Shown: one piece after another, positions 3,792 to 39,738 of the stretch | How positions within the stretch are numbered: position 1 is the first letter of the stretch | How the letters are laid out: every line of letters starts with the position of its first letter | DNA from: an uncultured Gammaproteobacteria bacterium | GTDB taxonomy: Bacteria > Patescibacteriota > Microgenomatia > JALYQM01 | Length of the DNA stretch: 64,000 nt | Direction: 5' to 3' | Assembly (NCBI GenBank): GCA_964403585.1 | Contig: CAYOFQ010000001.1 | Location: forward strand, 1,216,826-1,280,825 | Program-made: the position numbers and the translations under genes | Notes under the pieces: model-generated | The model's input: the letters and a program-made list of their open reading frames with translations, nothing else | Told to the model about the DNA's origin: nothing | Database searches by the model: none

Positions 3792-4226
3792 CTATTGTAC
3801 GTTTCCACCGGCACGTTCAATAGCTTCTTTTGCGGAAGCAGAAACAGGAAGTTCAACGGTTAATTTTTTAGTTAAATTGCCCTGTCCTAAAACCTTCACT
3901 CCAGACTGTGACGGAGAAACAACACCCTTCTCGTATAATGATTGTAACGTTACTGTCTCACCCGCATTAAATGAAGACTCCAGAACTGCCAGAGTCACCA
4001 CTATCGGTTTTTCATTTTTATTCAAATTTCCAATACCACGAACTTGTGGTAAATGCTTAAGCAAACGGCTTCGGCGGCTTCCGCCAACCCGATACCAGGG
4101 TGATTTACCGCGGGCCTTGTCACCTTTATGACCACGCCCTGAAGTTTTACCACGACCGGATGATGTACCACGTCCTACTCGTTTTCGGCTTCGCTCTACT
4201 AATGATGGCATTTCATGTAATTTCAT
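3792..4226 (-). CDS. rplO: 50S ribosomal protein L15
   Basis: GRGTSSGRGKTSGRGHKG motif; directly follows rpsE with no L30 gene between. Confidence 0.9.
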   Translation of the reverse strand: MKLHEMPSLVERSRKRVGRGTSSGRGKTSGRGHKGDKARGKSPWYRVGGSRRSRLLKHLPQVRGIGNLNKNEKPIVVTLAVLESSFNAGETVTLQSLYEKGVVSPSQSGVKVLGQGNLTKKLTVELPVSASAKEAIERAGGNVQ

Positions 4227-4230
4227 AACT

Positions 4231-4818
4231 TTACTTCACTTTCTTCAAAATATCTTTAACCGCATCATCGTCGGCAACTACCGGTAATTCATCAAGTGCA
4301 ATCTTCTCTTCTTTCTTCAAAATAACCTTCCGTCCCCCGTCGTCTTTACCAAGCCGGGTAGCACGCAACTGACCTAAAGCATGCAACGTTGCATAAACGT
4401 TTGAAGCCTGGTTTGTTGTTCCCATAATTTTAGAAACAACATCCCGAACTCCGGCTGCTTCAAGTACGGCACGGGCTGGTCCACCGGCAATAACACCGGT
4501 ACCTTTGGGAGCCGGCTTAAGCAAAATCTTAGCAGCACCAAGCTTTACAAATATATCGTGTGGAATAGTCGTTCCCTTCATTGGAACAGTTAGCAAATGC
4601 TTCTTGGCATAGTTAGCACCTTTACGAATAGCACTAGAAACATCCGGAGCTTTACCTAAACCAACACCAACTCGTCCTTTTTTATCGCCTACTACAATAA
4701 CTACTGAGAAACCCATACGGTTACCACCCTTTGTCTTTTTAGAGACTCGGTTAACCTGAACAACTTTCTCTTCGAATTCTTTTGGTTCCTGTGAATGATA
4801 TGAATTATTGTATGCCAT
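4231..4818 (-). CDS. rpsE: 30S ribosomal protein S5
   Basis: S5 dsRBD-like N-terminus and S5 C-terminal domain; operon position. Confidence 0.9.
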
Positions 4819-8140: not shown

Positions 8141-8554
8141 CTATTCCTTCACTACAAACTTAACTCCAATTGAAAACTTATGACCTGCCAGTCTCATTGC
8201 TTCCTGTGCCAATTCTTCAGATACACCACCAATTTCAAAGAGGATCGTACCTGGCTTTACCACAGCTACATAATGATCTACGTCACCTTTTCCACCACCC
8301 ATTTTAACTTCAGCCGGCTTTTTTCCAACCGGTTTATGAGGAAAAACGCGAATGTAGATTTTACCTCCACGCTTTGTCTCATGAGCAATAGCTTTACGGG
8401 CTGCTTCAATTTGACGACTGGTTACCCACCCTGCTTCCAGAGCCTGCAAACCAAACTGACCAAATGATACTTCATTGCCGCGTGTTGCAATTCCTCCGCG
8501 CTTACCACGGAATGCTTTTCGGTATTTAGTTCGTGACGGCATTAATAAAGCCAT
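8141..8554 (-). CDS. rplP: 50S ribosomal protein L16
   Basis: 137 aa; [19 protein letters not shown]. Confidence 0.9.
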
Positions 8555-13203: not shown

Positions 13204-14124
13204 CTAATAAACGGCCACAACCCAGGAATTATACTCAGGAACATCACCTTTCACTACTTTGAAGTACGCATCCTGCAACTTTTGGCCAATCTCCCCGAGG
13301 CCGATTGTATAGCCATCAATCTCACGCACCGGAGAAACTTTAGCCCCGGTCCCCGATAAGAACACCTCATCAGCAAAGTAAAGCTCCGTACGGTCAATAG
13401 AGCGCTCTACAACGGTATACGCGAGGTCTTCGGCTAATTGGATCACGGTCTTCCGGGTAATACCTTCCAGGACATTATCGGTAACCGGTGGAGTAATAAT
13501 CTTTCCTTCACGCACAATAAACAGATTTTCAGCACTCCCCTCTACCGCATGACCAAGTGAATCAAGTACAATAGCCTCATCATACCCATTTCGTAAAGCC
13601 TCTTCTTTCGCAAAGGCCGTATTTACATATGCTCCGAAGATTTTGGCACGAGCAGGAATCGCAGTATCCTCTACTCGCCTCCATGAAGATACCATGCAAC
13701 GCATACCTGAGGTCGGCACATAATCACCTAAGGGATACAGAAAAATAGCCAGAGAATCAGTTCCATGGGCAAATTTAGGCCCGATATCCACTGCATCCGT
13801 GAACTGCGACACTCGAATATACGCATCCTGCCTGATCTCATTCCGCTTTAAAAGCTCAACCAGTACCGCCAAAAACTTCTCATACGTGTACTTTTTTTCA
13901 AAGTTATCGTAGTTACACAACCGACACGACCTCAAAAATCGTTGGTAATGGTCCTCAGGACGGAAAATATACAACTGCTGCTTTTCCTCATTCCAATGCG
14001 CCCGCATCCCCGTAAATACCCCTAAGCCATACAGAAACCCGGTCGTAGCAATACTGATATTGGCCTCGGCAAAGGGTACAAACTGATCACGAAAATATAC
14101 CTGTAGGGATTTATAATCAAACAT
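13204..14124 (-). CDS. class IV (fold-type IV) PLP aminotransferase, branched-chain/D-amino-acid aminotransferase family
   Basis: EGSAENLFIV and GITR motifs typical of BCAT/DAAT; 306 aa. BCAT vs DAAT cannot be resolved by eye. Confidence 0.75.
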   Translation of the reverse strand: MFDYKSLQVYFRDQFVPFAEANISIATTGFLYGLGVFTGMRAHWNEEKQQLYIFRPEDHYQRFLRSCRLCNYDNFEKKYTYEKFLAVLVELLKRNEIRQDAYIRVSQFTDAVDIGPKFAHGTDSLAIFLYPLGDYVPTSGMRCMVSSWRRVEDTAIPARAKIFGAYVNTAFAKEEALRNGYDEAIVLDSLGHAVEGSAENLFIVREGKIITPPVTDNVLEGITRKTVIQLAEDLAYTVVERSIDRTELYFADEVFLSGTGAKVSPVREIDGYTIGLGEIGQKLQDAYFKVVKGDVPEYNSWVVAVY

Positions 14125-14179
14125 ATGGTGAAATTATATCAATGGCACTGTCGTTACGACAGTACCAGAGAGGAACGCA

Positions 14180-15604
14180 ATGCAATGGTATAATTCCAAT
14201 CCATCTATGAATGAGCAACAAAAAAGGAAGTATTCCGATCACGCACTACTTGACCAACTGCCACTCCCCTTTGTCGGGAAAAAAACCAAGATTGGCAATG
14301 GCGCTAACTCGGTCGCGATTAGGATTGAGTCAGATAACCAGGCTCGCTTCATAGCAATTATTAAAGAAGATAACCCCGAGACTCGAAATGCACTCCGAAG
14401 AGGTATGGATTTGCGTCAACAATTTCCTGAATTCACACAAGACCAAATGGCTATAGTAACCGAAGGGCTAGACGGTGAACATATAACTGTTCGCATCGGA
14501 CCCGAAATTGACGGAGGCAATCTTAATGACTACGGATTGCTCTATAACCTTTCCAACCCAACCATTAGACGAAAACTAGTACAGCTAACCGCTGAGACAC
14601 TGCACCACTTTTCGCAAACCGGCACCTTACTGGATTGGGGAGGCCGTAAACCACGGAACAAAATTCACAAAGCGCTTATCGCCGCCAACCCCCTCAGTAC
14701 CAATAATATTGTTGCCTCTGACGACCAAAGGGAGTTCATTTTTGTAGACAATGAAGTCTACGATACCTTCAACTGGAGAACAGCCAGCCCTATGTACAAA
14801 GCTGTCATAGCCATACAGTTGGCAGCCCATGTCGGCTGGGCGACTGTCATGGGTACTATCGAAAAACTGAGTTTCACCGACAAGGGATTACCAGTAGAAC
14901 AAGACTCTGCTTTCAAATTCACCGACGGCCTTTCCAAAGTAATACGTCTCTTGAAGGAATCAGGAACTAACTATTTTATCGTGGGTTCAACTGCACATGC
15001 AGCCTGGTGCGAACAATACGGTGTATTTAAAGATCTGAGTTTACATCGAGCTAACGGAACCAAAAGAGATATCGATGTAATGATCTACTCGAGCGATCAT
15101 GAGCAACTTGCTCAACTACAAGCAAAAATAACTGCACTTGAAACTGATATAAATTGCCCTGAAGTATCTCTCCATATCTCCCAAGAACTCTCTCTTTATC
15201 AAGCTAAGCAAGAAAAACGTGTCGGGAAAAGAATAAAAACCATGTTCCAAGTTCCGGTAATAGACCAGGGTCAACCTGCGGCTGCGTATGATGACCTTGT
15301 ATTATATCTCGACCCTTCAATGCTCGAACCTCAACAAATTACCTACAAAAATATTTCTATAAGAACGTTACGTCCCGAAATATTAGCCGGAATGTATATT
15401 TATCGAGGTGGTGCAGTGAAGCCGAAGGATACTGAAAAGATTAAAGAATTAGTAACTTTAGCTGGACAATCTATACCATTTGAATTTATAGAGTTTGCTC
15501 GAGAAATTAGACGCACCCATCGAAACGACTATCGCAACTTCATAATTACAGAAATTACAAAGCCATTAAGAAGTAAGATTAGAAAATTACTGTCATTTAG
15601 CTAA
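14180..15604 (+). CDS. two-domain protein: N-terminal small-kinase-like domain (Gly-loop IGNGANSVAIRI...IAIIKE) fused to C-terminal pol-beta-type nucleotidyltransferase domain (GS...TKRDIDV, ANT(2'')/Lnu-like)
   Basis: Motifs read from the translation; 474 aa; stop is 4 nt before the TagA-like gene. Confidence 0.55.
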   Translation: MQWYNSNPSMNEQQKRKYSDHALLDQLPLPFVGKKTKIGNGANSVAIRIESDNQARFIAIIKEDNPETRNALRRGMDLRQQFPEFTQDQMAIVTEGLDGEHITVRIGPEIDGGNLNDYGLLYNLSNPTIRRKLVQLTAETLHHFSQTGTLLDWGGRKPRNKIHKALIAANPLSTNNIVASDDQREFIFVDNEVYDTFNWRTASPMYKAVIAIQLAAHVGWATVMGTIEKLSFTDKGLPVEQDSAFKFTDGLSKVIRLLKESGTNYFIVGSTAHAAWCEQYGVFKDLSLHRANGTKRDIDVMIYSSDHEQLAQLQAKITALETDINCPEVSLHISQELSLYQAKQEKRVGKRIKTMFQVPVIDQGQPAAAYDDLVLYLDPSMLEPQQITYKNISIRTLRPEILAGMYIYRGGAVKPKDTEKIKELVTLAGQSIPFEFIEFAREIRRTHRNDYRNFIITEITKPLRSKIRKLLSFS

Positions 15605-15607
15605 TAT

Positions 15608-16378
15608 ATGAAAAATAATTCGGAGCGAATATTTCATCATGGAGTACCAATAGATCAATTAACTGAACCAGAGGCGCTAGCATGCATTTCCCAGCAACTT
15701 CAGATACAAGACCGCCCCAGACAAATAGTCACGCTCAATAATGAAACGTACAGCCATGCTCGAAGATATCCCAGTTTTCGAAAGGTATTAGAAGAAACCT
15801 GGCTGGTTCTAAACGAGTCTCACGGACTGACCACATTTACCTGGGTAGTACGACCAGCACTACACAAGATCCCCGGTGGAGTATATCTAGCCGAAAAAGC
15901 AGTTAATTTATGCGCTCAAGATCAAAAGCGAGTTGTATTGGTAGGAAGCAATGAAAAGAACCGTTTAACGGCAAAGACAAAACTTAAAGAAAACTATCCT
16001 CAACTAGATATTCAGCAATTGCCAGGAGATTACTCATATAACAATAGAGATGCCAATTATATTGTTCAAGGATTACAGACACTAAAACCTGATTTTGTCT
16101 TACTGGCCGGAGACGAAATTCAAAGCCAGCAATGGATCCATCAGCATATTGTCCTTCCCAACACTATCAGATGTATCATTGGAAATTTCGGCGGAACAAT
16201 CGACTACCTCACTGGAAGCTCCACTCAATGGCGGCCCAAGGAAGAAGATAATAAATGGGGCATCTCTTCGTTAATAATCAATATGCGAAGAACTCCACAA
16301 CGACGCAAGCGAGCACTTCGGGCCATGGCAAATATGGCCGTTCTGGCTGTTGAAGATCTAACCCACCAAAGGCATTAA
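15608..16378 (+). CDS. WecB/TagA/CpsF-family glycosyltransferase (N-acetylmannosaminyltransferase-like)
   Basis: N-terminus IFHHGVPIDQLTEPEALACI resembles the TagA/WecG I(L/F)GV.VD..T..EA start; 256 aa. Confidence 0.6.
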   Translation: MKNNSERIFHHGVPIDQLTEPEALACISQQLQIQDRPRQIVTLNNETYSHARRYPSFRKVLEETWLVLNESHGLTTFTWVVRPALHKIPGGVYLAEKAVNLCAQDQKRVVLVGSNEKNRLTAKTKLKENYPQLDIQQLPGDYSYNNRDANYIVQGLQTLKPDFVLLAGDEIQSQQWIHQHIVLPNTIRCIIGNFGGTIDYLTGSSTQWRPKEEDNKWGISSLIINMRRTPQRRKRALRAMANMAVLAVEDLTHQRH

Positions 16379-17080
16379 AGTTGAAACAAACTGTTCACTG
16401 ACATCATGCGGGGAAACTCCAGTAGTATCGATATACGTTACTGCAGTCCCCTCTTCTTGAAGCACCTCTAAAACTCTAAAAAACTCTGCACGGATTTCGC
16501 GCAACCCGTTATTATTCTCGTGCTGATGCCTCCATTTTGGACGTACTAACCTCTCACCTGAGATAGCTTCTTGCGCAATGCGTTCGTCAATCCGAGCAAC
16601 AGCAACTTCCGGGTCTACGTCTAAAAAAATTGTATGATCCCGATATGGTGATCCATGTAATCGACGAAGGTATGCAAGGCGCTGAGGAATTGGCAATGCA
16701 CCAAGCGACTCAGGTGTATAGTAAGGTGCGTAAGCAGCTGGATCAGCATACCCATCTCGTAATGAAAATACCACGTCGGGGTTGTACCTCCTTATAAGAC
16801 GAGGTTCCTGATATCTCCATTGAAACATTATTATCAAAGCATTAACAGCTGAAGTAAGGTGCCTATTCCGAGATTCATCAGCCTTAGTATGAAGTCTATC
16901 TAATGCCGCGGAAACCTGTTGATCAACAAACTCTTCCCTACCTCCGAGTATGATTGAGGACGGTTTCCCTATTTTTACTATACGAAGATCAGAAGGAATA
17001 GCCTGTTTAGAAATACGCCATACCGTATCTTTCCCAACACCATCTGTTCCGGTAGCACTTATTCGAACTAAACTTTCCAT
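16358..17080 (-). CDS. P-loop nucleoside-monophosphate kinase, thymidylate-kinase-like
   Basis: ISATGTDGVGKDT matches the GxDGxGK[ST]T dNMP-kinase P-loop; 240 aa; 3' end overlaps the TagA-like gene convergently by 21 nt. Confidence 0.55.
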   Translation of the reverse strand: MESLVRISATGTDGVGKDTVWRISKQAIPSDLRIVKIGKPSSIILGGREEFVDQQVSAALDRLHTKADESRNRHLTSAVNALIIMFQWRYQEPRLIRRYNPDVVFSLRDGYADPAAYAPYYTPESLGALPIPQRLAYLRRLHGSPYRDHTIFLDVDPEVAVARIDERIAQEAISGERLVRPKWRHQHENNNGLREIRAEFFRVLEVLQEEGTAVTYIDTTGVSPHDVSEQFVSTLMPLVG

Positions 17081-17144
17081 AGCACTATAAATACAATTAA
17101 TTCACGGATTGTATCATATTTATGACAAATTAGTCACATTAAAC

Positions 17145-18275
17145 TCATGTTAACAATTCTTTTGATACCAGGTGTGGTATAGTTGGTACTAACTTTGGCA
17201 CTCTCAATTCGGCAGTATTTAGAACCGTAAAAGTACTCATGATCTCTTCTAGCGATCGACTCCGCAGCAGTTTCAATCCGATCAGACATCCCATCAAGTT
17301 AGCTCTGATATCAAACCGCCACTCATTATCAAAATATCCGTCCTGAACAGGCACACTTGAGATAACATTAGTCAGATTATGCAATTTTAAGGTTTGTTTC
17401 AATTCAAAACCATACCCCGCCATAAGAGACGCTAGAGACAGTGCAGACTCTTTATGTACCATTTGGAGATAGTCTGGGATGAAACTCAACAACCCCGCTG
17501 CTTCCAAGTGCAGATGCATGTTATATTTTTGGCTTAAGCCAAGTAAAACCACCAATGCCATATGATGACTCGCGTGTATCAAACGGTCTACTCCGTTGTA
17601 TTCGACCGGATTAGTCGCTTGCTCTTTACGCAGAATACCGGCGTTATTGAATACCCGTAAATACCCTGAATTACGATCCCAGGCGTTGGGATAGCGATAC
17701 CGGCTACTACCAATTTGATTATCAAAATCAGGAGTATACGAATTAAGCAAGGCCGCGGTCGAAATAACAAAATTCATCAATAACTCGTCACGGTAGTTCA
17801 CGCTTTGAAGTGCCTCCTCCAGCCGATCGGGATAGGCACCCTTAGGAAAATAACTGGCAGCGGAATCATCGAGCGCTTGATGCGTAGAAGCCAGCAACGC
17901 CGTATAAATATCTCCCATTCCCCAGTTTGAATGAATTTCGGCAGCGGAAAAAGCATTATATGCGGCTTGATGAACGAGCGGAAAAACTAATTCATTGGTA
18001 TACCAACCAATCGGATCAGCGGTTCCAAAATAAGGTTGCGGATTGGCAAAACAAGCAATTCCATACCCAGGAAAGACATCTGTCGCAGTTGCAAGTTTCT
18101 CCTGAAGGCTTTGTCTATGTTCAAAAATCCGGTCAAGGCGATATAACGGCTCTGCAGCAACCACACTGCCAAGTAATCCTATCCTACGCAACACTTGAGC
18201 AATAGTTATTGCTCTCACCGTCCTTTCACTTCGCTCCAGGAACTGCCGTCTGGGGATTCCTTCATATAAACTCAT
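17145..18275 (-). CDS. hypothetical protein, 376 aa
   Basis: Long ORF, no recognised motif. Confidence 0.5.
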   Translation of the reverse strand: MSLYEGIPRRQFLERSERTVRAITIAQVLRRIGLLGSVVAAEPLYRLDRIFEHRQSLQEKLATATDVFPGYGIACFANPQPYFGTADPIGWYTNELVFPLVHQAAYNAFSAAEIHSNWGMGDIYTALLASTHQALDDSAASYFPKGAYPDRLEEALQSVNYRDELLMNFVISTAALLNSYTPDFDNQIGSSRYRYPNAWDRNSGYLRVFNNAGILRKEQATNPVEYNGVDRLIHASHHMALVVLLGLSQKYNMHLHLEAAGLLSFIPDYLQMVHKESALSLASLMAGYGFELKQTLKLHNLTNVISSVPVQDGYFDNEWRFDIRANLMGCLIGLKLLRSRSLEEIMSTFTVLNTAELRVPKLVPTIPHLVSKELLT

Positions 18276-18332
18276 AATTCAGTTAAAGTAGCAGTTGACC
18301 ATTATGGCTTTACCAATAAAAAACCAGAGCGC

Positions 18333-19133
18333 CTATTCTGCTGCCGAAAGCAGGTACATCCCTTGATACGCAATTAGCCGGTCGGTGACTTGACGCCGCC
18401 TCGATCTATCCAGCGGATGGACCATTTTTGGAATAACATCCCAAACAGCTTTTTCAAACAATCGGGCATGGAGTCTCCTAAACCCCGGTCTCGTTTGAAA
18501 AACGTTATCCCAACTACCGGTAACTCCTTCAAACCAGTTCGTGGTCTCTTCCTGATCAACGATAAAACCGCTTTCCTCAAATAATCGTCTATGTCCTGCT
18601 TGATCCGTAAAAATCTTATGTGTTCGGTCAAGCAGACCTGTTTCAGGCATCCTCATCTGTCGTACCGCACGCAAAGCTTCGATCATCAAGGGAATCGACC
18701 AAATCGAATGAATAGGCATGGTCACAATCACATTCTTAATATTAGGCAAAGCCCGGATACCTCTTAACACCTCTAAGGCTTCTGGACGACGAAAGTGTTC
18801 GATGACATCCAGCGCTAAGACTGTGGTAATATCGGAACTTTCATAATCAAACGGCAAATGACGGGCATCAGCTTGAATAACCCGTGCATCAGCTGCATTT
18901 CCGTGAGCCCTCCGCAGCGCACTTCGATCCAAATCGGCGCCAACAACCCGATATCCTTCCTGCATTAGTATGCGGGAGGCAACCAGATCGCTACACCCCA
19001 AATCTAGTACTGTGCCGTTACCATGTACTTTGCGTACCAATTCACGGGCAGCATCATATAATGAAGACCGCTCGCGTTCGGCAATGTCCTTACGCACATA
19101 TACACTCACACCTTCTGTTTGATTGACCGACAT
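18333..19133 (-). CDS. class I SAM-dependent methyltransferase
   Basis: Motif I VLDLGCSDL, motif post-I VVGADLD. Confidence 0.7.
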   Translation of the reverse strand: MSVNQTEGVSVYVRKDIAERERSSLYDAARELVRKVHGNGTVLDLGCSDLVASRILMQEGYRVVGADLDRSALRRAHGNAADARVIQADARHLPFDYESSDITTVLALDVIEHFRRPEALEVLRGIRALPNIKNVIVTMPIHSIWSIPLMIEALRAVRQMRMPETGLLDRTHKIFTDQAGHRRLFEESGFIVDQEETTNWFEGVTGSWDNVFQTRPGFRRLHARLFEKAVWDVIPKMVHPLDRSRRRQVTDRLIAYQGMYLLSAAE

Positions 19134-19156: not shown

Positions 19157-19189
19157 ACAAAAAAAGAGCCCCATTGCTGGGACTCTCTA
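19157..19189 (-). terminator. rho-independent terminator after tuf
   Basis: Minus-strand agagtccc-agcaat-ggggctct followed by TTTTTTT. Confidence 0.6.
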
Positions 19190-19216: not shown

Positions 19217-20395
19217 TTACTCAAGAATCTTGGTTACAACACCTGCTCCAACTGTGTGTCCACCTTCGCGGATAGCGAATTTAAGACCTTCTTCAAGAGC
19301 GATTGGGGTGATCAGAGTTACAGTAACTTTGGTGTTATCACCAGGCATTACCATTTCTACACCATCCGGAAGCTTAACTTCACCGGTCACGTCAGTTGTA
19401 CGTACGTAGAACTGAGGGCGATAACCAGAGAAGAATGGAGTATGACGTCCACCCTCTTCCTTGGAGAGGATGTATGCTTCACCTTCAAACTTGGTATGTG
19501 GCTTAACTGATCCTGGCTTAGCGAGAACCTGTCCGCGCTCAACCTGATCTTTTTCAATACCACGGAGTAAGATACCAACGTTGTCTCCGGCTTGTCCCTG
19601 TTCCAACTGTTTACGGAACATTTCAACACCGGTAACGGTTGTTGTCTGAGTATTGGTGATACCGAGGATTTCGATTGTGTCACCCACTTTAACAATACCG
19701 CGCTCAACACGACCGGTAACAACAGTTCCACGGCCTTTAATTGAGAATACGTCTTCAACAGCCATCAAGAATGGCTTATCGATGTCGCGGGTTGGTTCAG
19801 GAATGTACTCATCAACAGTGTCCATTAATTTCTTGACTGCTTCAACATTAGCTGCGTCACCTTCAAGAGCCTTCAAAGCTGAACCACGAATGATTGGAGT
19901 GGTATCGCCTGGGAACTGGTAGCGAGTAAGAAGTTCACGAACTTCCATTTCGACCAAGTCGAGAAGTTCAGGGTCATCAACCATGTCGCATTTGTTAAGG
20001 AAAACAACAATTGCTGGAACACCAACCTGACGAGCCAAAAGAATGTGCTCGCGAGTCTGAGGCATAGGACCATCTGGAGCTGAAACAACGAGGATTGCTC
20101 CGTCGGTCTGTGCAGCACCGGTGATCATGTTCTTGATGTAGTCAGCGTGACCTGGCATATCAATGTGTGCATAGTGACGCTTAGCTGTTTCATATTCCTG
20201 GTGGGAAATGTTAATTGTAATACCACGTGCCTTTTCTTCAGGCGCGCTGTCGATCTGGTCATATGCGCGGTATTCCGCCATACCCTGATCAGCAAGTACT
20301 TTGGTGATAGCCGAAGTAAGAGTTGTCTTACCGTGGTCTACGTGTCCCATCGTACCAATGTTAACGTGTGGCTTTGTTCTTTGATACGTTGCCAT
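19217..20395 (-). CDS. tuf: elongation factor Tu
   Basis: [23 protein letters not shown] motifs; 392 aa. Confidence 0.97.
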
Positions 20396-24572: not shown

Positions 24573-25715
24573 CTACTTCTTCCGTTCATGCCTCAAAAGA
24601 AGCACCCCAAATACCACAATTGCAACCGCTTCAATCGCGCCCAAAATGAGAAAACCCCAGCGCGGCTGCTGTCCATCCTCCGCAGTTGTAAAAATACCGC
24701 CTGGAATAAGTGCTGATGGCCCTGATTCAGTCTTTTGAGCCTGTACAGAGACTATTTTCTCGACACTTACCGAAGGCTTCAACACAAAACCATTCTTATC
24801 CAAAAGCGTAAACGTTACCTTTTGATTCCCCCCTGAAAGTCGCGGCAAGCGGGATTGAGGCTCCGTTACATAATAATGTACTCCCTCGGCAAATACATCA
24901 ATGTAACCATCCTTCCCCGGAGTAAAACCTGACAGGACAACCTCAAACGGAACTTCCTTGTTCATTTCGGTATTCCGTGGCAAGGTTACATTCTCAATTA
25001 CCGGCTTATTTTGCGAATAGATAAATGGCACCTGAAAATCGACAGTCGGAACAACCGGACGATCGTTCGCATTATATAGTGCAACGCGCAGAGAGTGCTT
25101 ACCTTCTGTTAGCGGCGTATTTAAGGTGTATCTGGTCGGATCAGCCAGATCCTTCGAAGTGCCGTCAACCTCTCCATCCACAAATACCTGATAGTATCCG
25201 GAATTTTCCTCAAAAGATGCATACTCATAGAGTATTGGGAAGGTCGGCGTGGCTGTATAGACAGTCGAATCGGGGCGGAAGTCTAGCACCTGCAACAAGG
25301 GACTCTTTTTCTGGACATGTATAGTAAAGGAATCGGCTATTCGGGGTACAAACGGCGAACGGTCAACATGCGTAAGTTCAACTTCAACATAATGCGTACC
25401 AACTCTCGGTATAGTAAGCGTCGCGCTGGTGGAAGCAGTATTGGTAAAGAATTTACCATCGACATACACTGCAATAACACCTGCCTGATACTCCTCAACC
25501 GGTTTTGCAGTAAGCAAATAGTTTGAAACTTCCATTTCCAGCGTAAATTTTGAGCTAACAATACTATCTTTTTGAGGGGATACAACGGATATACTTGGTG
25601 TCTTCGCGGTATCATCTGGAACCGGTACCAATAATCCGTCTTGTGCAGATACAGAAGCCATACCGAAAAATAAGCCTCCCAACATCAGTATCATTCCCAA
25701 GAGCAGTTTTTTCAT
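24573..25715 (-). CDS. secreted protein with N-terminal signal peptide and C-terminal transmembrane anchor (380 aa)
   Basis: MKKLLLGMILMLGGLFFGMASVSA signal; C-terminal GFLILGAIEAVAIVVFGVLLLRHERKK. Confidence 0.6.
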   Translation of the reverse strand: MKKLLLGMILMLGGLFFGMASVSAQDGLLVPVPDDTAKTPSISVVSPQKDSIVSSKFTLEMEVSNYLLTAKPVEEYQAGVIAVYVDGKFFTNTASTSATLTIPRVGTHYVEVELTHVDRSPFVPRIADSFTIHVQKKSPLLQVLDFRPDSTVYTATPTFPILYEYASFEENSGYYQVFVDGEVDGTSKDLADPTRYTLNTPLTEGKHSLRVALYNANDRPVVPTVDFQVPFIYSQNKPVIENVTLPRNTEMNKEVPFEVVLSGFTPGKDGYIDVFAEGVHYYVTEPQSRLPRLSGGNQKVTFTLLDKNGFVLKPSVSVEKIVSVQAQKTESGPSALIPGGIFTTAEDGQQPRWGFLILGAIEAVAIVVFGVLLLRHERKK

Positions 25716-28078: not shown

Positions 28079-30292
28079 ATGGCAAAAAGCGTCGAACAAC
28101 CTGCAGAACCTCAAAAACCACATCAGATAATTGAACTGAAACCAAACCGTTTTGGTCTGGAAACACCTGACACTGCTATCTCACTATTTGGAGCACTTTC
28201 CTCGCTACCTCGCGCACCTTTCTTTGAGCGGTTACGGGGACGACACCACTCTATTACCCTGGAAATTGCGACTATCAATCAGGCGATCCATTTTTTCGCC
28301 GAAATGCCTGATCAGTTTAAAACCTTTTTTGAGAGTCAGCTGATTTCCCACTATCCGACTATTCAAATGTACCAGGTCGATGACTATCTACCGGGGTTCC
28401 TCTCTCAACCATATTTATCGTATGGTCAAATAAAATTTTACTCACCCTTCTACTACCCCATCAAAACCTTAAAGGATTTTAAAGACATCGATCCGCTTTC
28501 TTCAATCCTGGGTGTCATGTCAAAAACAAAGCCCAATGAGGGAATGCTAATTCAAATGACGCTGACCGCCGCACCACCCACCTGGCAGCGTATGGGTAGA
28601 AATGTCATTGATAAGGGTATTCCCGGACCGGAAAAAGGTACACGTCAAGCGCATCCGCAGGCAGCACTTATTCAGAGTAAAATCGATAGCAACGGACTGC
28701 ATGTAGCGATTAAAGTTGCCGCCTTTGCGGCAGATCTGAATACGGCAAGATCCAATTTGTATAATTTGGGTGGAGCCTACGGAGGATTCGCAACTGGTGA
28801 AGGGAACGCTTTGATATTACGATTACCATCGGTATTTGCCCGCAAAAAATTCCTGGAAAGCATGCGACAAAGAACCATCGCCTTCTCACCTCGAAACCAT
28901 GTCTTCTCGGATGAAGAACTCGCTACCATTTGGCATCTACCGGGTGAAAAACTGGCCGGTATTAAAAACATTGCGTGGGGAAAAAGCCAGAAAGGTGAGC
29001 CGCCACAAAACTTACCAATCGCACGGAATTTAACAGCCGAACAGAAACAGGAAGTTGCTTGGCTGGGACGGACTGATTTTAAAAACACTGAGGAAATTTT
29101 TGGTATTAAAAAAGAGGACCGGTTTAAACACACGTATGTAATTGGAAAAACCGGTACGGGTAAATCCACGCTTTTACAAAATATGATTATCTCGGATATG
29201 CGCAATCGCGAAGGATTATGTATCATCGATCCGCATGGCGATTTCGCCGATGTTATCCTCGATTATGTACCATCCTACCGTATTAACGATGTTGTTTACC
29301 TTGATCCTTCCGACATGGAACATCCGTTCCGCTTAAATCCGTTCGAGTTAGGCACCATTAACGCCTCCGACCTTACCGGACAACGCGAACTGGTTGCTGC
29401 CGGTATTGTGGGAATTTTCAAAAAACTGTATGCCAAGAGCTGGGGACCCCGATTGGAATATATTCTACGCAATGTAATCCTGACACTGGTACAGTTTAAA
29501 GATGCTACCTTTTTATACGTACCGGAAATGCTCACCAACGACCGCGTTAGAGGCGCGATTGTCTCCCGCATCCAGGATCCGGTCTTACGCAGTTTCTGGG
29601 AACAGGAATTTGCCGGCATGACCGATAAACTCCGCACCGAAGCAATCTCACCAATTCTAAACAAAGTCGGACAATTTATCAGTTCGCAATATACCCGATC
29701 GGTTATCTCAAGCCCTCGTTCTTCTATAAGTTTGGAGCAAATAATGGACGAGAAAAAAATTCTTATTCTTAACCTGTCTCAGGGAAAAATCGGCGAAGAC
29801 AACTCTGCTCTCCTTGGTGCGATGTTTATTACCAAAATGCAGATCGCTGCGATGAACCGCGCCTGGCTCGCCAAAGACCAGCGCCAGGATTTTTTCCTTT
29901 ACGTCGATGAGTTCCAGAACTTTGCTACTGACGCGTTCATTAAAATTCTTTCTGAAGCTCGTAAGTATCGTTTGGCCTTGATCATGGCTAACCAGTACAC
30001 ATCTCAGCTTAACGACGATATCCGCAGTTCAATCTTCGGTAACGTCGGTACATTAGTTTCCTTTACGGTTGGAGCGGAAGACGCCCCGTATCTCTCAAGA
30101 GAATTTGGAGGAATTTATACTGAACAAGACCTAGTAGGTATCGACAACTACAATATTGTTTGTAAACTTAACATCGATAACCAGACAAGTTTACCTTTTA
30201 GTGCCAAGACATTACCACTGCCTTACCAGCTGAAAAATAAAAACAAAGAGAAAGTACTCAAAGTAAGCTGGGAAAAATACGGAAAAAAATAA
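28079..30292 (+). CDS. TraD/VirD4/TrwB-like coupling-protein-family P-loop NTPase (FtsK/HerA superfamily) with novel soluble ~330-aa N-terminal domain
   Basis: Walker A VIGKTGTGKSTLLQNMI, DPHGDF motif, Walker B LYVDEFQNF; no TM helix at the N-terminus; 737 aa. Confidence 0.6.
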   Translation: MAKSVEQPAEPQKPHQIIELKPNRFGLETPDTAISLFGALSSLPRAPFFERLRGRHHSITLEIATINQAIHFFAEMPDQFKTFFESQLISHYPTIQMYQVDDYLPGFLSQPYLSYGQIKFYSPFYYPIKTLKDFKDIDPLSSILGVMSKTKPNEGMLIQMTLTAAPPTWQRMGRNVIDKGIPGPEKGTRQAHPQAALIQSKIDSNGLHVAIKVAAFAADLNTARSNLYNLGGAYGGFATGEGNALILRLPSVFARKKFLESMRQRTIAFSPRNHVFSDEELATIWHLPGEKLAGIKNIAWGKSQKGEPPQNLPIARNLTAEQKQEVAWLGRTDFKNTEEIFGIKKEDRFKHTYVIGKTGTGKSTLLQNMIISDMRNREGLCIIDPHGDFADVILDYVPSYRINDVVYLDPSDMEHPFRLNPFELGTINASDLTGQRELVAAGIVGIFKKLYAKSWGPRLEYILRNVILTLVQFKDATFLYVPEMLTNDRVRGAIVSRIQDPVLRSFWEQEFAGMTDKLRTEAISPILNKVGQFISSQYTRSVISSPRSSISLEQIMDEKKILILNLSQGKIGEDNSALLGAMFITKMQIAAMNRAWLAKDQRQDFFLYVDEFQNFATDAFIKILSEARKYRLALIMANQYTSQLNDDIRSSIFGNVGTLVSFTVGAEDAPYLSREFGGIYTEQDLVGIDNYNIVCKLNIDNQTSLPFSAKTLPLPYQLKNKNKEKVLKVSWEKYGKK

Positions 30293-32449: not shown

Positions 32450-33631
32450 TTATACTCTTGCACTTGCGTCTAATCCGACATAGCTCAAGATCATCCGCCG
32501 TTGGTCAGGAACATTTAGAAGGGGCGCAATGTATAAAGGCGCACGAGGCAAGTTAGTTTGTGTAATACCTTTACCTTTAGTAACCTCACCTTGTAATGAG
32601 TCGAGATCAGCCATATCCTTAATTAGACTTCGAATAACAGCTGTAGCTCCAGCAAAAGTAGCAACTGTACGATCATAAGGCTGAGGTGCCACTTCGGAAA
32701 AATCGACTGGCTTGCCTAAAATAATTTGTCGACCCAAGGCCACTACTTCGTAACGCAAAGCAGTCTGTAATAAAAAGTTGGATGCGACTTTCTCAGCATC
32801 ATCACCACCTATTGCTTTAATTTGCGCAGCGATTTCTTCAGCATCTCGTACACTATACTTAACCTCTTGACTGGAATGTTGATCTAAACGTCGATCAGCA
32901 TGTGCAGCCCGCATATGTCTCATACGAGCTTGAATATAATCAGTTAAATCGATACGAGGATAGTGCATAAACACCGCGTCCTGAACCAGTAGTCGATCAT
33001 CAGGTGAAATTAAACTGTTCATAACACTATCTGAGGTAATACCCTGCTGACCAAACATTACTGGTCCAAGCTCAGCGTCAATCAACAACAAACTCCCCTT
33101 CAGCCGTCGTTTATGCCTATTTTTAGTCGTAAATTCACGAGCTAAAGGATGCTTATCCGCTTCAAAAATTTCCATCAACATATACTCAGCGTCAGTTAAA
33201 CCAAGCTCAAGCATACGCATAACTTCAGGTGGGTACGTCGCGTAATTAGCTCCAACAATTGGTTTATCCCCTTGATCCCACATGTTCAAGAAAGCGCGAG
33301 GGAACGGCGAAACATCAGCATCAAGAAGGAAGGTGCGCCGAAGACCTGCAGAAACTGCATGGCGACAAATAGTTCTCTCGGCTGCTACCAAACCAGGAGG
33401 AGTCCGGATAAATTTTATGTCGGCATTAAAATCAGATTTATTTACACCCCACTCAAGCGGTTGTAATCCGCGATTAATACGCGGACCGTTAATACCAATC
33501 ACAATGCCTGCGTCTATTTGCATTTGGTTAAGACAAATATCCACATTTCGTAAAGCCGCGTCCAGAACGTCCGGGCCTTCACCATCGTAAAAAGGTATTC
33601 CAACAATAGTGCTACTCTCTGTGTTTACCAT
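32450..33631 (-). CDS. GT-A-fold glycosyltransferase-like protein
   Basis: N-terminal IVGIPFYDGEG and DxD-like TFLLDADVSP; 393 aa; weak assignment. Confidence 0.4.
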   Translation of the reverse strand: MVNTESSTIVGIPFYDGEGPDVLDAALRNVDICLNQMQIDAGIVIGINGPRINRGLQPLEWGVNKSDFNADIKFIRTPPGLVAAERTICRHAVSAGLRRTFLLDADVSPFPRAFLNMWDQGDKPIVGANYATYPPEVMRMLELGLTDAEYMLMEIFEADKHPLAREFTTKNRHKRRLKGSLLLIDAELGPVMFGQQGITSDSVMNSLISPDDRLLVQDAVFMHYPRIDLTDYIQARMRHMRAAHADRRLDQHSSQEVKYSVRDAEEIAAQIKAIGGDDAEKVASNFLLQTALRYEVVALGRQIILGKPVDFSEVAPQPYDRTVATFAGATAVIRSLIKDMADLDSLQGEVTKGKGITQTNLPRAPLYIAPLLNVPDQRRMILSYVGLDASARV

Positions 33632-33820
33632 AGCGAAAATAGTATCACAGCAGCTTTAATAAGTCAACTATAGGCTTCTTACTCCAATGGAAGTACATAA
33701 GTATAGTGTAAGAGTACAGTAAAAATGTTACAGCATTCCTACCAATCTACAACTCGATCAATACTTGCTACCACCGGTCAATTGCAGTATAATAGCAAAA
33801 ATTATAGGATATATAACTCT

Positions 33821-35005
33821 ATGTCAGAAAAAACAAAAGTCGGTATCAATATTGGCAAAGTCGGAAAATCAGACCGTGGTATCACTATTTATACCCAAGA
33901 CATGCTCCGCGAATTCGATAAACAAGGTCCCGATAATGTCGAATTTGTTCTCTTGCACTATCCCGGCAAATCTCCCGAAGACAGCATTGAACTCAAAAAT
34001 GCGACAATGGTAGAACTCCCCTATTCGGATAAGGCCGGCGCCATTGAGATGATCGAAAACGAACAGGTAATCGGCCCTCAACAACAACGACAACTCGGTC
34101 TTGATGTAGTCTGGCATCCTCACAACCGAGGGCAATTATGGACTCCCGTACCGTACGTCGAAACGTTGCATGATGTGCTACCTGTCGCAGCACCAGAACT
34201 GGCCGGAAATTATATCAATTCCGCTGAGAAAAGAGCGCTTAATGAAAGTCGTCTTTACACCGCCCGGTTCGCAACTCGAGTTATAACCGACTCGCAGTTT
34301 AGTAAAGATGAAATTATTAAACATTTAGGAGTAGCCCCAGAAAGAATCGATGTTGTCCACCTCGGAGTGAATCGAGACGTCTACCGCCCCATCATCGATG
34401 AAGAGCAGCGCGCCCAAGTGAGAGATCGATACCAATTACCAGAGGATTACATCCTCACCACAGGAAGCTATGCTCCACACAAGAACCAAATTACCATCCT
34501 TAAAGCCTATGCAGCTAGCCGGCTTCCTGACCAGGGAATCGGACTGGTGATGGTAGGTCCAAACGATGCAACTGGATATCGTATTGGCTATGAGCATATT
34601 AAGCAAACTGCCGAAGACATGGGATTACCTCCACTGCTGGTACGCTTACTCCCTTCAGTCCCAATTTCAGATTTAGTTACGTTGTACAGCGGCGCTAAGC
34701 TATTTACCTCAGCCTCACTTTACGAAGGATTTGGCTTAACACCGCTGGAAGCCATGGCTTGCGGAATTCCAGTTGTGGCCTCAAACGCAACCGCAGCTCC
34801 GGAAGTCTTGGGCACCGCTGCACTCTTTAGTGAACCAAAAGATGAACTGACCTATGCTCGACACTACGAGAATATTGTCGGCAGTAATGATACGCGAAGG
34901 AGATTAGTTGTTGCAGGCGCTGCTCAAGTGGATAAATATGATATACGCCGTACTGGTAAACAAACATTAGATATCCTTATTGAAGCAGCCAACTCTAAGA
35001 AGTAA
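33821..35005 (+). CDS. GT4-family (GT-B) glycosyltransferase; start taken at MSEKTKVGINIG, ORF track extends to 33725
   Basis: EGFGLTPLEAMACGIPVV motif (GT4 EX7E region). Confidence 0.8.
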   Translation: MSEKTKVGINIGKVGKSDRGITIYTQDMLREFDKQGPDNVEFVLLHYPGKSPEDSIELKNATMVELPYSDKAGAIEMIENEQVIGPQQQRQLGLDVVWHPHNRGQLWTPVPYVETLHDVLPVAAPELAGNYINSAEKRALNESRLYTARFATRVITDSQFSKDEIIKHLGVAPERIDVVHLGVNRDVYRPIIDEEQRAQVRDRYQLPEDYILTTGSYAPHKNQITILKAYAASRLPDQGIGLVMVGPNDATGYRIGYEHIKQTAEDMGLPPLLVRLLPSVPISDLVTLYSGAKLFTSASLYEGFGLTPLEAMACGIPVVASNATAAPEVLGTAALFSEPKDELTYARHYENIVGSNDTRRRLVVAGAAQVDKYDIRRTGKQTLDILIEAANSKK

Positions 35006-35772: not shown

Positions 35773-37038
35773 CTATAAGGATAGACCTTCTACCGCAAGT
35801 CGAACTAAATCGCTTGAAGGGATACTATCGATAACGGTAAAGTCGTCTTCTTGCAGCGCTTGGACAATCTCATCACTTGTATAGGGTGACGGCTCAACTG
35901 TAATCCCTTTGAAAGAACGAGCAGAAGACCACACGTTTTTTGATAAAACATCTCCAGGAATAAACGGGACGATTACCGGCCGACCCACGGCGCCAGCAAT
36001 ATGAGCTGGTCCCGTATCATTAGATAGAATTATATTGGAATGGCGAGCGACTATAGCCAAGTCTCTTAACGACGGCAGCTTAGTTACATTGCAATGAATA
36101 TTACCAGTACCCTCAAAGTCCCCGAACTGTGCCTCAATATCCTCAGTCGTATACCGGTCACGAGTGTTCCCACTTGGAGCACAAGCCATTATGCAGTCTA
36201 TTTGCCTGTTGGGGTCGACTTGAGCGACATACTTACTAACTTCTTGCAAGACCTCTTGCCAACGACCATAACATTTAGCAGGGACAAAAGATTGAAAGAA
36301 ACACATAATAGTAACAGCATCATCGCGTAATTCTAACTGCTGACGCAACTCACCATAGCGTGCAGTATCTTTCGCATCAAATAAGATGGTCGGTTGGGCC
36401 GCTGCCGAATCAATACTCCCCTCAGGCAGGGCAAACATGTGCTCAAAAAAACGGCTATAGCGTACTTCTGGACCAAGCCCGGCAAACCCACGAACAGCCG
36501 GCTTAAACAAATCTGATAGTACCGTTACATCACGAGAATCATTCCCCTGAGAATAGTGAATTCTGGAAATCGAAGGCCTGCGACCGTTGCCACCATGAAA
36601 ATCAAAAACCATCAAATTACCTGGCTCTGAAGTAAATAGTCCTTGTACCTGAAAATTGGATAATACCGGCATAACGGTCATAACTTCTACCGGTCGACCG
36701 AGTTCCTGAGAATATAAATCAGCTGGATACAATGAGGCTAATCCCTGGTCTATGACAAGCTTTATCGGAGTATCGGGCTTTCCTGCTTTAGTGAGAACTT
36801 CATGTATCGGGTGGATAAACGCGCTGGTCAGCACACCTTCCCCCAATCTACCGCCATTTCCACCAATCTGAAGCACAACTTTATCAACTGAATCTAAGTC
36901 GTGGAGGGTTAGCATGTGTTCTCGAGAAAAATTCTCAATTTTGAAGTCCGGCCTATAGTTGACAGGAAGATCCAGGTCATGAGTGGTTACATCACTCAGT
37001 ACCATTTTTCTAGACTCAAAAGCGACTTCAGTTGACAT
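35773..37038 (-). CDS. GT9-family glycosyltransferase (ADP-heptose:acceptor heptosyltransferase-like) with ~80-aa N-terminal extension
   Basis: SNDTGPAHIAGAVGRPVIVPF matches the GT9 NDTG.MHLAAA.G.P motif; 421 aa. Confidence 0.7.
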   Translation of the reverse strand: MSTEVAFESRKMVLSDVTTHDLDLPVNYRPDFKIENFSREHMLTLHDLDSVDKVVLQIGGNGGRLGEGVLTSAFIHPIHEVLTKAGKPDTPIKLVIDQGLASLYPADLYSQELGRPVEVMTVMPVLSNFQVQGLFTSEPGNLMVFDFHGGNGRRPSISRIHYSQGNDSRDVTVLSDLFKPAVRGFAGLGPEVRYSRFFEHMFALPEGSIDSAAAQPTILFDAKDTARYGELRQQLELRDDAVTIMCFFQSFVPAKCYGRWQEVLQEVSKYVAQVDPNRQIDCIMACAPSGNTRDRYTTEDIEAQFGDFEGTGNIHCNVTKLPSLRDLAIVARHSNIILSNDTGPAHIAGAVGRPVIVPFIPGDVLSKNVWSSARSFKGITVEPSPYTSDEIVQALQEDDFTVIDSIPSSDLVRLAVEGLSL

Positions 37039-38165: not shown

Positions 38166-39640
<1,475 letters not shown>

Positions 39641-39738
39641 ATAAAAATTATCCATCAAATTTTGGGTATTCCGTTATCAATCCTACTAACTCTTACAAGC
39701 GTTCGGTCTGTCAAACGGAATGAAATTCATAGGAATTG

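Follow-up and report, generated by a model that had tools for sequence, protein, structure and literature searches.

The window analysed here is a stretch of 64 kb of contig CAYOFQ010000001.1, and between its ilvE and tuf genes lies a gene (14180–15604, + strand, from the open reading frame (ORF) listing) for a 474-aa protein, termed KN in this study, in which a kinase-like domain is fused to a nucleotidyltransferase (NTase)-like module. A rare, fast-evolving family is defined here with KN as its first member. We tentatively favour the reading that it is a two-active-site transferase for cell-envelope precursors, which together with the GT26-family glycosyltransferase (GT) encoded next to it acts on an undecaprenyl-diphosphate-linked saccharide. 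A role in the cell envelope was preferred to one in antibiotic resistance because of the genomic contexts of the family. A sequence-only reading of this DNA had proposed the kinase-NTase fusion, and the proposal was upheld, for the N half by Foldseek on a structural model and for the C half by its motif signature and a profile match to ANT(2'')-Ia above the controls.

Relatives of KN are few. An exhaustive phmmer search of 1.84 billion protein cluster representatives (cut-off E ≤ 1e-3) found 41 that resemble it, one of which is a spurious repeat protein. Most homologs are 470–540 aa long and match KN from end to end at 22–33% identity, which indicates that the two-part architecture is conserved; it is kept over about 25 full-length homologs. 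Column counts below are given out of the 25 sequences of the family alignment for the N half and out of 22 sequences for the C half. The invariant or near-invariant columns are G41, S44, G112, G155, P171, N176 and D190 in the N half, and R266, G269, A272, R296, D297, D299, R409, G411 and D417 in the C half. AlphaFold without an alignment gave an unusable model with a predicted local distance difference test (pLDDT) score of 33, and AlphaFold2 (AF2) with the 25-sequence alignment was used instead, giving a pLDDT of 87 and a predicted template modelling (pTM) score of 0.85.

The family is close to invisible to standard libraries. KN had no match in Pfam, NCBIfam, PADLOC or PDB sequence searches, a Pfam scan of the 25 members gave no match at E ≤ 0.01, and no PDB sequence matched the profile built from the family. 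A word-indexed search returned KN itself only, and two matches when the family profile was used. No member was found by motif scan in viral contigs, and uncultivated environmental lineages are the only ones in which the family occurs.

The N half (residues ~30–235; 14267–14884, + strand) is a bilobal protein-kinase-like (PKL) fold as judged from the AF2 model. Foldseek against the PDB gave 100 matches at E ≤ 1e-3, and all 50 of the 50 listed were protein-kinase-like folds, among them PAK, MK2, MEK1, MARK, APH(2'')-Ia and macrolide 2'-phosphotransferase (MPH(2')-I). The E values ranged from 7e-5 to 6e-4 for the eukaryotic protein kinases (ePKs), APH(2'')-Ia and the macrolide 2'-phosphotransferase, and a viral structure library searched in the same way returned kinases only. 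The motifs quoted for this domain in the sequence-only reading were located at I38–I49 (IGNGANSVAIRI) and I58–E63 (IAIIKE). The Gly-rich loop, I38-G-N-G41-A-N-S44-V-A-I-R48 (14291–14323, + strand), follows the pattern [IVL]-G39-x-G41-x-x-S44 across the family, with G41 in 25/25, S44 in 24/25, G39 in 20/25 and R48 in 19/25. A putative catalytic and metal-binding segment (14633–14755, + strand) holds D152 (21/25, plus two Glu), G155 (25/25), P171 (23/25) and N176 (25/25), and after a strand at 186–188, placed from the model and the alignment, comes D190-x-E192 (D190 in 25/25, Glu or Asp at 192 in 20/25). We read N176 as the putative metal-binding Asn and D190 as the putative DFG-type Asp.

The predicted C-lobe of this domain is minimal. 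Past D190 the model shows a single long hydrophobic helix (204–234), and with only one helix after D190 the GHI substrate-binding subdomain of protein kinases appears to be absent. This helix is the sole hydrophobic segment of KN. Its interpretation as a transmembrane (TM) span, with one half of KN on each side of the membrane, was rejected, since most members have a hydropathy below 1.6 there and charges are common; we read it as a core (αF-like) or peripheral helix. None of the 25 members matched PF01636 (APH/choline kinase) or PF06293 (Kdo/WaaP) at E ≤ 0.1, and NCBIfam gave no match.

The C half (residues 236–474; 14885–15601, + strand) appears from its signature and from profile comparison to be a pol-beta-type NTase-like module, the NTase core being defined as in PMC6965139. 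The model places helices at 241–261, 269–279 and 307–320 and strands at 265–268, 297–302 and 328–333, with pLDDT above 90. Motif I, Y265-F-I-V-G269-S270-T-A272 (hG[GS]; 14972–14995, + strand), lies at the beta1-alpha2 turn and aligns to GGG of ANT(2'')-Ia; G269 is kept in 22/22, Ser or Gly at 270 in 22/22, and A272 and Y265 in 20/22 each. Motif II, R296-D297-I-D299 ([DE]x[DE] on beta2; 15065–15076, + strand), aligns to D44-I-D46 of the same enzyme, and both D297 and D299 are invariant (22/22), with R296 in 20/22. The GS and TKRDIDV of the sequence-only reading correspond to G269–S270 and T294–V300. The family also has a motif of its own, R409-x-G411-x2-K414-x-K416-D417-x2-K420 (15404–15439, + strand), recognised from column conservation (R409 22/22, G411 20/22, D417 21/22, K420 20/22, and K414 and K416 16/22), whose residues are candidates for donor-phosphate binding or catalysis. 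As a DNA search pattern for the metagenome scan, it had exactly one match in the window. The other conserved acids of the C half are only D417 and D438 (15/22), both in the helical part.

The comparison with ANT(2'')-Ia (sequence identical to PDB 4WQK) was pre-specified and consisted of a single profile comparison. Alpha1, the G-G/S turn and the DxD aligned in register (hhalign, P = 0.005), and the score of 24.1 exceeded those of 300 shuffles (12.8 ± 2.4, maximum 23.1) and of ten unrelated real proteins (11–19). At the sequence level, the similarity is thus real but distant. Membership of the ANT(2'')/Lnu family itself, to which the sequence-only reading had likened the C domain, was not supported by Pfam: PF10706 matched KN with E 0.13 and 12.9 bits against a cut-off of 21, and only 3/22 members matched it weakly. 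Among the weak Pfam matches of the C-domain sequences, only NTase families recur (MdcG in four members, ANT(2'') in three), and DUF6036 and Polbeta each have one weakly matching member. The C-domain profile against the PDB gave designed helical repeats and sub-significant NTases (TM1012; AbiEii/AbiGii toxin, E 1.8).

Stand-alone proteins of 230–300 aa that correspond to the C half occur elsewhere, which indicates that it is an independent module. In three metagenomic loci the stand-alone module is convergent with an NAGPA-type phosphodiester glycosidase (L070, 3043–3909; L087, 3–875; L101, 2146–3114; all + strand). Its other neighbours include PAP2 lipid phosphatases and NUDIX hydrolases, which recur, and type IV pilus genes.

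The genomic contexts point to the cell envelope. Of 12 informative contexts of the full-length fusion, about seven include enzymes that build peptidoglycan or undecaprenyl-linked glycans, and five KN versions are tightly coupled, mostly operonic, with a TagA-like GT, MurT/GatD or a penicillin-binding protein (PBP). murT and gatD are normally adjacent, and MurT/GatD is the system of lipid II amidation. In three loci (L005 (P0004), 1–2422; L009 (P0005), 1–2114; L119 (P0016), 1–1807) the KN gene stands between murT and a GatD-type amidotransferase gene, with junctions of 4-nt overlaps or gaps of 0–8 nt (MurT_C E 4e-31). Across these loci MurT is 62–72% and GatD 85–89% identical, and KN only ~34–37%. 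In L064 KN comes 26 nt after a PBP transpeptidase gene and on its strand, with an AAA_14/DUF4143 ATPase as a neighbour; this locus, like L075 and L092 below, came from a degenerate-motif scan of metagenomes. In L116 (P0008) a WecG-family GT lies three genes downstream of KN and a YkuD L,D-transpeptidase upstream, and in L120 (P0012) a MraY/WecA-type GT4 lies ~4 kb away.

The neighbour of KN in the window is a GT of 256 aa (15608–16378, + strand), whose gene starts 3 nt past the KN stop codon and is translationally close-coupled to it. Its WecG/TagA-type assignment, already made from the letters, was confirmed by Pfam (PF03808, E 3.6e-12, 46.9 bits against a threshold of 27.4), and the protein aligns over residues 6–242 to TagA of Thermoanaerobacter italicus (PDB 7MPK, E 5.6e-7). 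TagA works on lipid-linked N-acetylglucosamine at the membrane (PMC6493773). When the residues listed in that study were mapped by hand from the HMMER alignment, Thr37 (T42), Asn39 (N44), Tyr137 (Y142) and Arg221 of the C-terminal appendage (R232) were found to be kept. Asp65, the proposed base, is changed to Glu (E70; by eye, Asn in the version of the relative L014), and Arg83 (I88, with K87 adjacent) and Gln167/Glu168 (S173/Q174) are not kept. The TarA equivalog NF041710 scored 59.2 bits against a cut-off of 350. From these sequence comparisons the protein is best classed as a divergent GT26 member rather than a TarA orthologue. Its sugar specificity, donor or acceptor may differ from that of TagA, and the differences at the catalytic base and in the donor pocket fit such a change.

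The pairing of KN with a TagA-like GT, which had been suggested from the window alone, recurs elsewhere. KN as the sole query found no related locus in species-representative genomes, and the relative L014 was recovered by searching these genomes with the adjacent IlvE. L014 and the window are close relatives (rpsJ 99%, tuf 98.7%, fusA 94%, rplC 86% and IlvE 83% identity). The tuf-ilvE gap of L014 contains a GT2-like gene, a KN homolog (33% identity) and a TagA-like GT (36% identity), and the order of the last two is swapped: the GT comes first and overlaps the start of KN by 8 nt, whereas in the window KN comes first. The pair is thus diverged and reordered, and the WecG-family GT of L116 adds a second lineage; both cases support a functional tie between KN and the GT. 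GT26 genes are rare per genome, and by estimate rather than computation, chance is unlikely to have placed one only a few genes from KN in each of two independent lineages. In another relative, L004, with IlvE at 83–85% identity, KN (34–37% identity) stands tail-to-tail with ilvE.

The tuf-ilvE gap is a hot spot in which the KN and GT26 module persists, while its sequence and order and the accessory genes beside it turn over much more quickly than the flanking genes do. The term accessory island, used of the five-gene block from the start, was supported by the different gene set in the same gap of L014. The three remaining genes of the window, for a P-loop protein, a 376-aa protein and a methyltransferase, are absent from L014, where the GT2-like gene takes their place. 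As conserved or obligate partners of KN they were rejected, being absent from the L014 island and from every other family context. The KN gene of L014 is broken by a single in-frame TAA (8176–8178, − strand) in a poorly conserved loop of low model confidence, which is either a pseudogene, a split gene or a consensus error of the metagenome-assembled genome (MAG).

On the reading we favour, KN would be cytoplasmic and possibly membrane-peripheral, both of its domains would be catalytically active, and the acceptor would be a lipid-linked saccharide. WaaP and KdkA are PKL kinases that phosphorylate the lipopolysaccharide core. By analogy with them, the kinase-like domain would bind ATP through its Gly-loop, N176 and D190, and would phosphorylate a sugar hydroxyl of the lipid-linked intermediate. 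ANT enzymes transfer to hydroxyls of antibiotics, and NTase-fold enzymes of the FKRP/LicD type to glycans. The NTase module of KN may hold a metal via D297/D299 and a nucleotide-diphosphate donor via R409/K414/K416/K420, and by ANT or FKRP/LicD logic it would move a nucleoside monophosphate or a phospho-substituent onto a hydroxyl acceptor. FKRP itself has an NTase fold and uses CDP-ribitol to place ribitol phosphate on a glycan (PMC6965139). The tuf-ilvE gap would then house a hypervariable cassette for a surface glycopolymer, with the KN and GT pair at its core and the P-loop kinase-like, 376-aa and methyltransferase genes as lineage-specific add-ons. The scheme originally proposed, in which a sugar is activated by phosphorylation and then nucleotidylation, is possible but lacks a precedent among NTases of this fold.

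A bolder form of this idea, which we hold to be speculative, is that the family is a wall enzyme of bacteria resembling the Candidate Phyla Radiation (CPR) with a chemistry new to the pol-beta fold. It would either make a nucleoside-diphosphate (NDP)-sugar from the sugar-phosphate of its own kinase, or act as a third MurT/GatD subunit and GT26 partner that puts a phospho- or nucleotidyl decoration on undecaprenyl-linked precursors such as lipid II or linkage-unit lipids. If either version were true, rapid turnover of the cassette would diversify the cell surface.

Several observations weigh against the envelope-transferase reading. Of the catalytic residues on which the proposed fusion activity depends, the Gly-loop, N176, D190, D297 and D299 are kept, whereas others are not canonical. 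The beta3 column of K62, a Lys in the window protein, is Arg in 13, Lys in five and other residues in seven members, that is, Lys or Arg in 18/25. An HRD-type Asp is absent five residues before N176, where Pro171 stands (23/25), and the nearest conserved Asp, the candidate D152, lies 24 residues upstream of N176, a non-canonical spacing. A third carboxylate on beta3 is not conserved in the NTase module (column 330 is Ser in 14, Asp in three, Asn in two, Lys in two and Gly in one). KN has no TM segment or recognisable membrane-binding element. Its divergence is very fast, with 33–37% identity among genomes whose IlvE proteins are 83–85% identical; enzymes that act on an invariant precursor like lipid II do not usually diverge so fast, and the divergence could instead reflect a conflict or regulatory role. 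KN may be dispensable in L014, given the in-frame TAA. The contexts are also non-uniform: three loci have no adjacent envelope gene, namely L121 (P0020; GIY-YIG, adenylosuccinate synthase), L092 (HhH-GPD glycosylase) and L075 (PIN), and the neighbours of the stand-alone NTase module are heterogeneous.

In the first alternative, KN is a regulator that controls GT26, MurT/GatD and PBP; its N half would be an atypical protein kinase or a pseudokinase, and its C half would nucleotidylate proteins (as an AMPylase or UMPylase, like GlnE/GlnD or MNT). We consider this rather unlikely. A single regulator would explain partners as different as these three more easily than one chemical substrate does, the top structural matches are Hanks-type protein kinases, and the insertion between the subunits of the MurT/GatD complex suggests physical association. 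However, the dominance of ePKs among the Foldseek matches mirrors their abundance in the PDB, and neither the activation segment nor the GHI substrate-binding subdomain known from protein kinases is present in the model. Divergence to 33% between near relatives is seldom seen in regulators of conserved enzymes, and the gene is missing from most bacteria that have these wall enzymes.

In the second alternative, KN would serve sugar activation of the salvage type: the kinase-like domain makes a sugar-1-phosphate, and the NTase module converts it to an NDP-sugar for GT26 or for peptidoglycan. AmgK and NahK are PKL kinases that produce sugar-1-phosphates. KN would be a one-chain, non-orthologous analogue of AmgK-MurU or LicA-LicC; AmgK and MurU are an established kinase and uridylyltransferase salvage pair for N-acetylmuramic acid (PMC5371407, PMC7670621). 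Such a route would be attractive for a cell that depends on salvage. The order of kinase and NTase in one chain agrees with this scheme, and the compact model (pTM 0.85) and minimal C-lobe are compatible with the hand-over of an intermediate. The tight coupling to a GT whose donor pocket departs from TagA, the co-divergence of KN and GT (33–36%), which fits a changed sugar specificity, the peptidoglycan operon contexts and the reduced, CPR-like look of the organism can be added on the same side. What makes this scheme improbable in our view is first of all the fold, since the sugar-1-phosphate nucleotidyltransferases MurU, GlmU, RmlA and LicC have another one. To our knowledge, hydroxyl groups are the acceptors of every pol-beta-fold NTase that has been characterised, and none transfers to sugar-1-phosphates; an NDP-sugar route would therefore be unprecedented for this fold. 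The missing Pfam APH/choline-kinase signal in 25/25 members also speaks against it, the murT-gatD gap is not an obvious site for such a gene, and fast divergence would be odd for a central salvage step.

The sequence-only reading had left the substrate as either a sugar or an antibiotic. The sugar or cell-wall branch fits far better, with murT-KN-gatD found three times and PBP-KN once, and no resistance-gene or mobile-element features were seen that would favour the antibiotic branch. We hold it to be quite improbable that KN is a bifunctional enzyme (APH-like plus ANT-like) which inactivates an antibiotic or toxin and so shields wall synthesis from a natural product of the host or of a competitor. 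The nearest testable relative of the C domain is ANT(2'')-Ia, and the Foldseek matches include APH(2'') and macrolide phosphotransferase; rapid evolution in a variable island would suit such a role, and bifunctional resistance enzymes exist, e.g., AAC(6')-Ie/APH(2'')-Ia. On the other hand, no member has a Pfam APH or ANT match above threshold, nothing resembling a transposon, integron or plasmid and no repeats that convince were seen, resistance genes are not typically embedded between murT and gatD or coupled to a GT, and the family occurs only in uncultivated environmental lineages. A toxin or defence effector of a conflict system, with a MenT/AbiEii-like NTase acting on tRNA or another target and the kinase-like domain as sensor or regulator, is very improbable: hypervariability, the weak profile match to the AbiEii/AbiGii toxin, an R-x7-D in the C-terminal motif of KN that we take to be reminiscent of AbiEii motif IV, and the PIN-domain neighbour in L075 and AAA_14/DUF4143 ATPase in L064 would agree with it, but PADLOC gave nothing, no cognate antitoxin-like small gene was found, the motif scan found no member in viral contigs, and the strongest contexts of the family are biosynthetic operons.

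Both folds, as well as the idea of bifunctional modifying enzymes that depend on nucleoside triphosphates, are already known. New are this fusion, its invisibility to the libraries, its rarity, the repeated tight coupling to GT26, MurT-GatD and PBP genes, and the extreme divergence inside a conserved ribosomal-operon junction. We could find no description of a fusion of these two folds in the literature, and no paper connecting MurT/GatD with a kinase-NTase protein; a 2026 preprint that catalogues new PKL families of oral bacteria mentions no NTase fusion. How ultra-small uncultivated bacteria build their envelopes is poorly understood, and orphan genes are numerous in them; the KN family offers a compact, testable case in which two known catalytic folds are fused. 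If KN modifies wall precursors, the assembly of peptidoglycan or glycopolymers would gain a new reaction, and the pol-beta NTase fold a new use. With KN so extremely diverged in genomes that are otherwise near-identical, the tuf-ilvE gap would be a hot spot of surface variation, with a bearing on the host and phage interactions of episymbionts.

The five ORFs that had been placed between ilvE and tuf were borne out by the ORF listing. On one side lies ilvE, a branched-chain aminotransferase gene (13204–14124, − strand; NCBIfam PRK06606, E 9e-96, above threshold), which is divergent from KN across a spacer of 55 nt, with rpsJ just beyond it. On the other side is tuf (EF-Tu; 19217–20395, − strand). 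Since rpsJ and tuf stand on the two sides, the five genes occupy the str/S10 operon junction. A terminator-like hairpin with an 11-bp stem and a T-run (19163–19188, − strand), 3' of tuf, parts it from the minus-strand genes of the island.

The first of these minus-strand genes encodes a 240-aa protein (16358–17080) and overlaps the 3' end of the GT26 gene by 21 nt on the opposite strand. The Walker A motif of this protein is G10-T-D-G-V-G-K-D-T (GTDGVGKDT). It resembles thymidylate or deoxynucleoside kinases, and the earlier description as a thymidylate-kinase-like P-loop protein stood in part: the P-loop is present and the dTMP kinase matches are concordant in three libraries, all on residues ~145–205, while all library scores are below threshold (Pfam E 8.9e-4, 19.4 against 27 bits; TIGR00041 of NCBIfam E 3.9e-3, 16.9 against 83 bits; PHROGs thymidylate kinase E 1.1e-3). 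The 376-aa protein (17145–18275, − strand), described from the outset as uncharacterised, indeed has no detectable relative or domain; it had no match in Pfam, NCBIfam, PHROGs or PDB, found itself alone in a word-indexed search of 5.8 billion proteins, and has no TM-grade segment. The last gene (18333–19133, − strand) encodes a class I S-adenosylmethionine (SAM)-dependent methyltransferase of 266 aa, in agreement with the initial assignment (Methyltransf_25, E 1.1e-10, 42.5 against 27 bits; Methyltransf_11, E 5.3e-10, 40.2 against 21.2 bits). All three are lineage-specific accessory genes.

The GC content of the block (0.39–0.47) is inside the range of the window. No tRNA gene is found at the island, and no integrase or transposase ORF in it by ORF listing and Pfam; the flanking repeats are chance-grade pairs only. 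An imperfect 25-nt inverted repeat with 76% complementarity (14115–14139 / 19100–19124) brackets the five-gene block almost exactly and is probably due to chance, since 12 further pairs of like quality occur in the same 6.8 kb. An origin as a mobile element or prophage was rejected on these grounds, together with the lack of members in viral contigs. Assignment to a defence system was likewise rejected for want of PADLOC support: the scan gave nothing for KN, the GT26 protein or the P-loop protein, and for the methyltransferase a generic methyltransferase-domain match only (mad2, 1.4e-8).

The missing L30 gene, the solitary 16S gene, the large ORFs without a Pfam domain and the source of several family members are consistent with a CPR/Patescibacteria-like lineage but do not prove it. 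The NCBI labels of related MAGs ('Gammaproteobacteria', 'Bdellovibrionales') are doubtful. The spc operon (3792–4818, − strand) has no L30 gene: S5 (4231–4818) and L15 (3792–4226) are 4 nt apart, and SecY follows. Loss of L30 is a reported hallmark of CPR, and other lineages also lack it. Several KN family members come from 0.1-µm groundwater filtrates. A complete solitary 16S rRNA gene is present (38166–39645, − strand), and no 23S rRNA, 5S rRNA or tRNA gene was found in the 64 kb; with no 23S or 5S gene near the 16S gene, the rRNA operon is unlinked. Near the 16S gene lies a second glycan-related pair, a GT4-family glycosyltransferase (33725–35005, + strand) and a weak GT9/heptosyltransferase-like protein (35773–37038, − strand). 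A 737-aa VirD4/TraG/HerA-like ATPase with type IV secretion coupling-protein domains (28079–30292, + strand) hints at conjugative or DNA-transfer machinery in a small genome. Among 24 confidently placed genes of the window, the stop codons are TAA in 14, TAG in nine and TGA in one, so that TGA is rare. Ribosomal protein L3 (11840–12625, − strand) carries an acidic C-terminal tail of ~45 residues rich in Glu, Ala, Val and Pro beyond the part conserved with the relative, the tblastn match covering residues 1–217 only. Five ORFs of 359–942 aa have no Pfam domain at E ≤ 1e-5 (1215–2486, 24573–25715, 32450–33631, 40884–41963 and 42007–44835), and orphan proteins abound in the window.

In comparison with known systems, the bifunctional AAC(6')-Ie/APH(2'')-Ia likewise joins two domains that modify small molecules, one of PKL fold, in a single chain, but its partner domain is a GNAT acetyltransferase, and it is transposon-borne in pathogens in a context unrelated to wall operons. 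ANT(2'')-Ia/Lnu (PF10706; PDB 4WQK) shares with the C half of KN the alpha1-beta1-G[GS]-alpha2-beta2-DxD core and the arrangement of an NTase core followed by a helical C-terminal part. KN differs from it in an extra beta-rich insert (~360–396), the R-x-G-x2-K-x-K-D-x2-K motif and the lack of a conserved beta3 carboxylate, and it is fused to a kinase-like domain and located on the chromosome in wall-biosynthesis contexts, not on mobile resistance elements.

AmgK-MurU and LicA-LicC (and HldE/GlmU-type enzymes) resemble KN in that a PKL kinase is followed by nucleotidyl transfer that feeds wall assembly, within a wall gene context (PMC5371407, PMC4364537). Their second enzyme has a GlmU/RmlA-type fold and phosphate acceptors, whereas the second module of KN appears to be of pol-beta type; KN also has no APH/choline-kinase Pfam signal, and no single-chain fusion of these two folds was found described. 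The comparison with WaaP and KdkA draws on established knowledge. Like them, KN would have a small PKL domain without the GHI subdomain that may act on a lipid-linked saccharide at the inner membrane face; unlike them, it has no Pfam Kdo/WaaP match, its catalytic-loop Asp is off the canonical spacing, and an NTase is fused to it.

The 256-aa GT is related to TagA/TarA, WecG and CpsF by its PF03808 match, by the TagA alignment over its full length and by R232, the equivalent of the appendage residue R221, and is set apart from TagA by Glu in place of Asp65 and by the loss of Arg83, Gln167 and Glu168. For the C domain of KN, the working analogy is FKRP/fukutin/LicD, in which the NTase fold decorates glycans in teichoic-acid-type chemistry: a CDP-activated donor gives up a phospho-substituent, which is placed on a sugar hydroxyl (PMC6965139). 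FKRP has three acidic residues, whereas the KN family keeps two on the core sheet and has no detected sequence-profile link to LicD.

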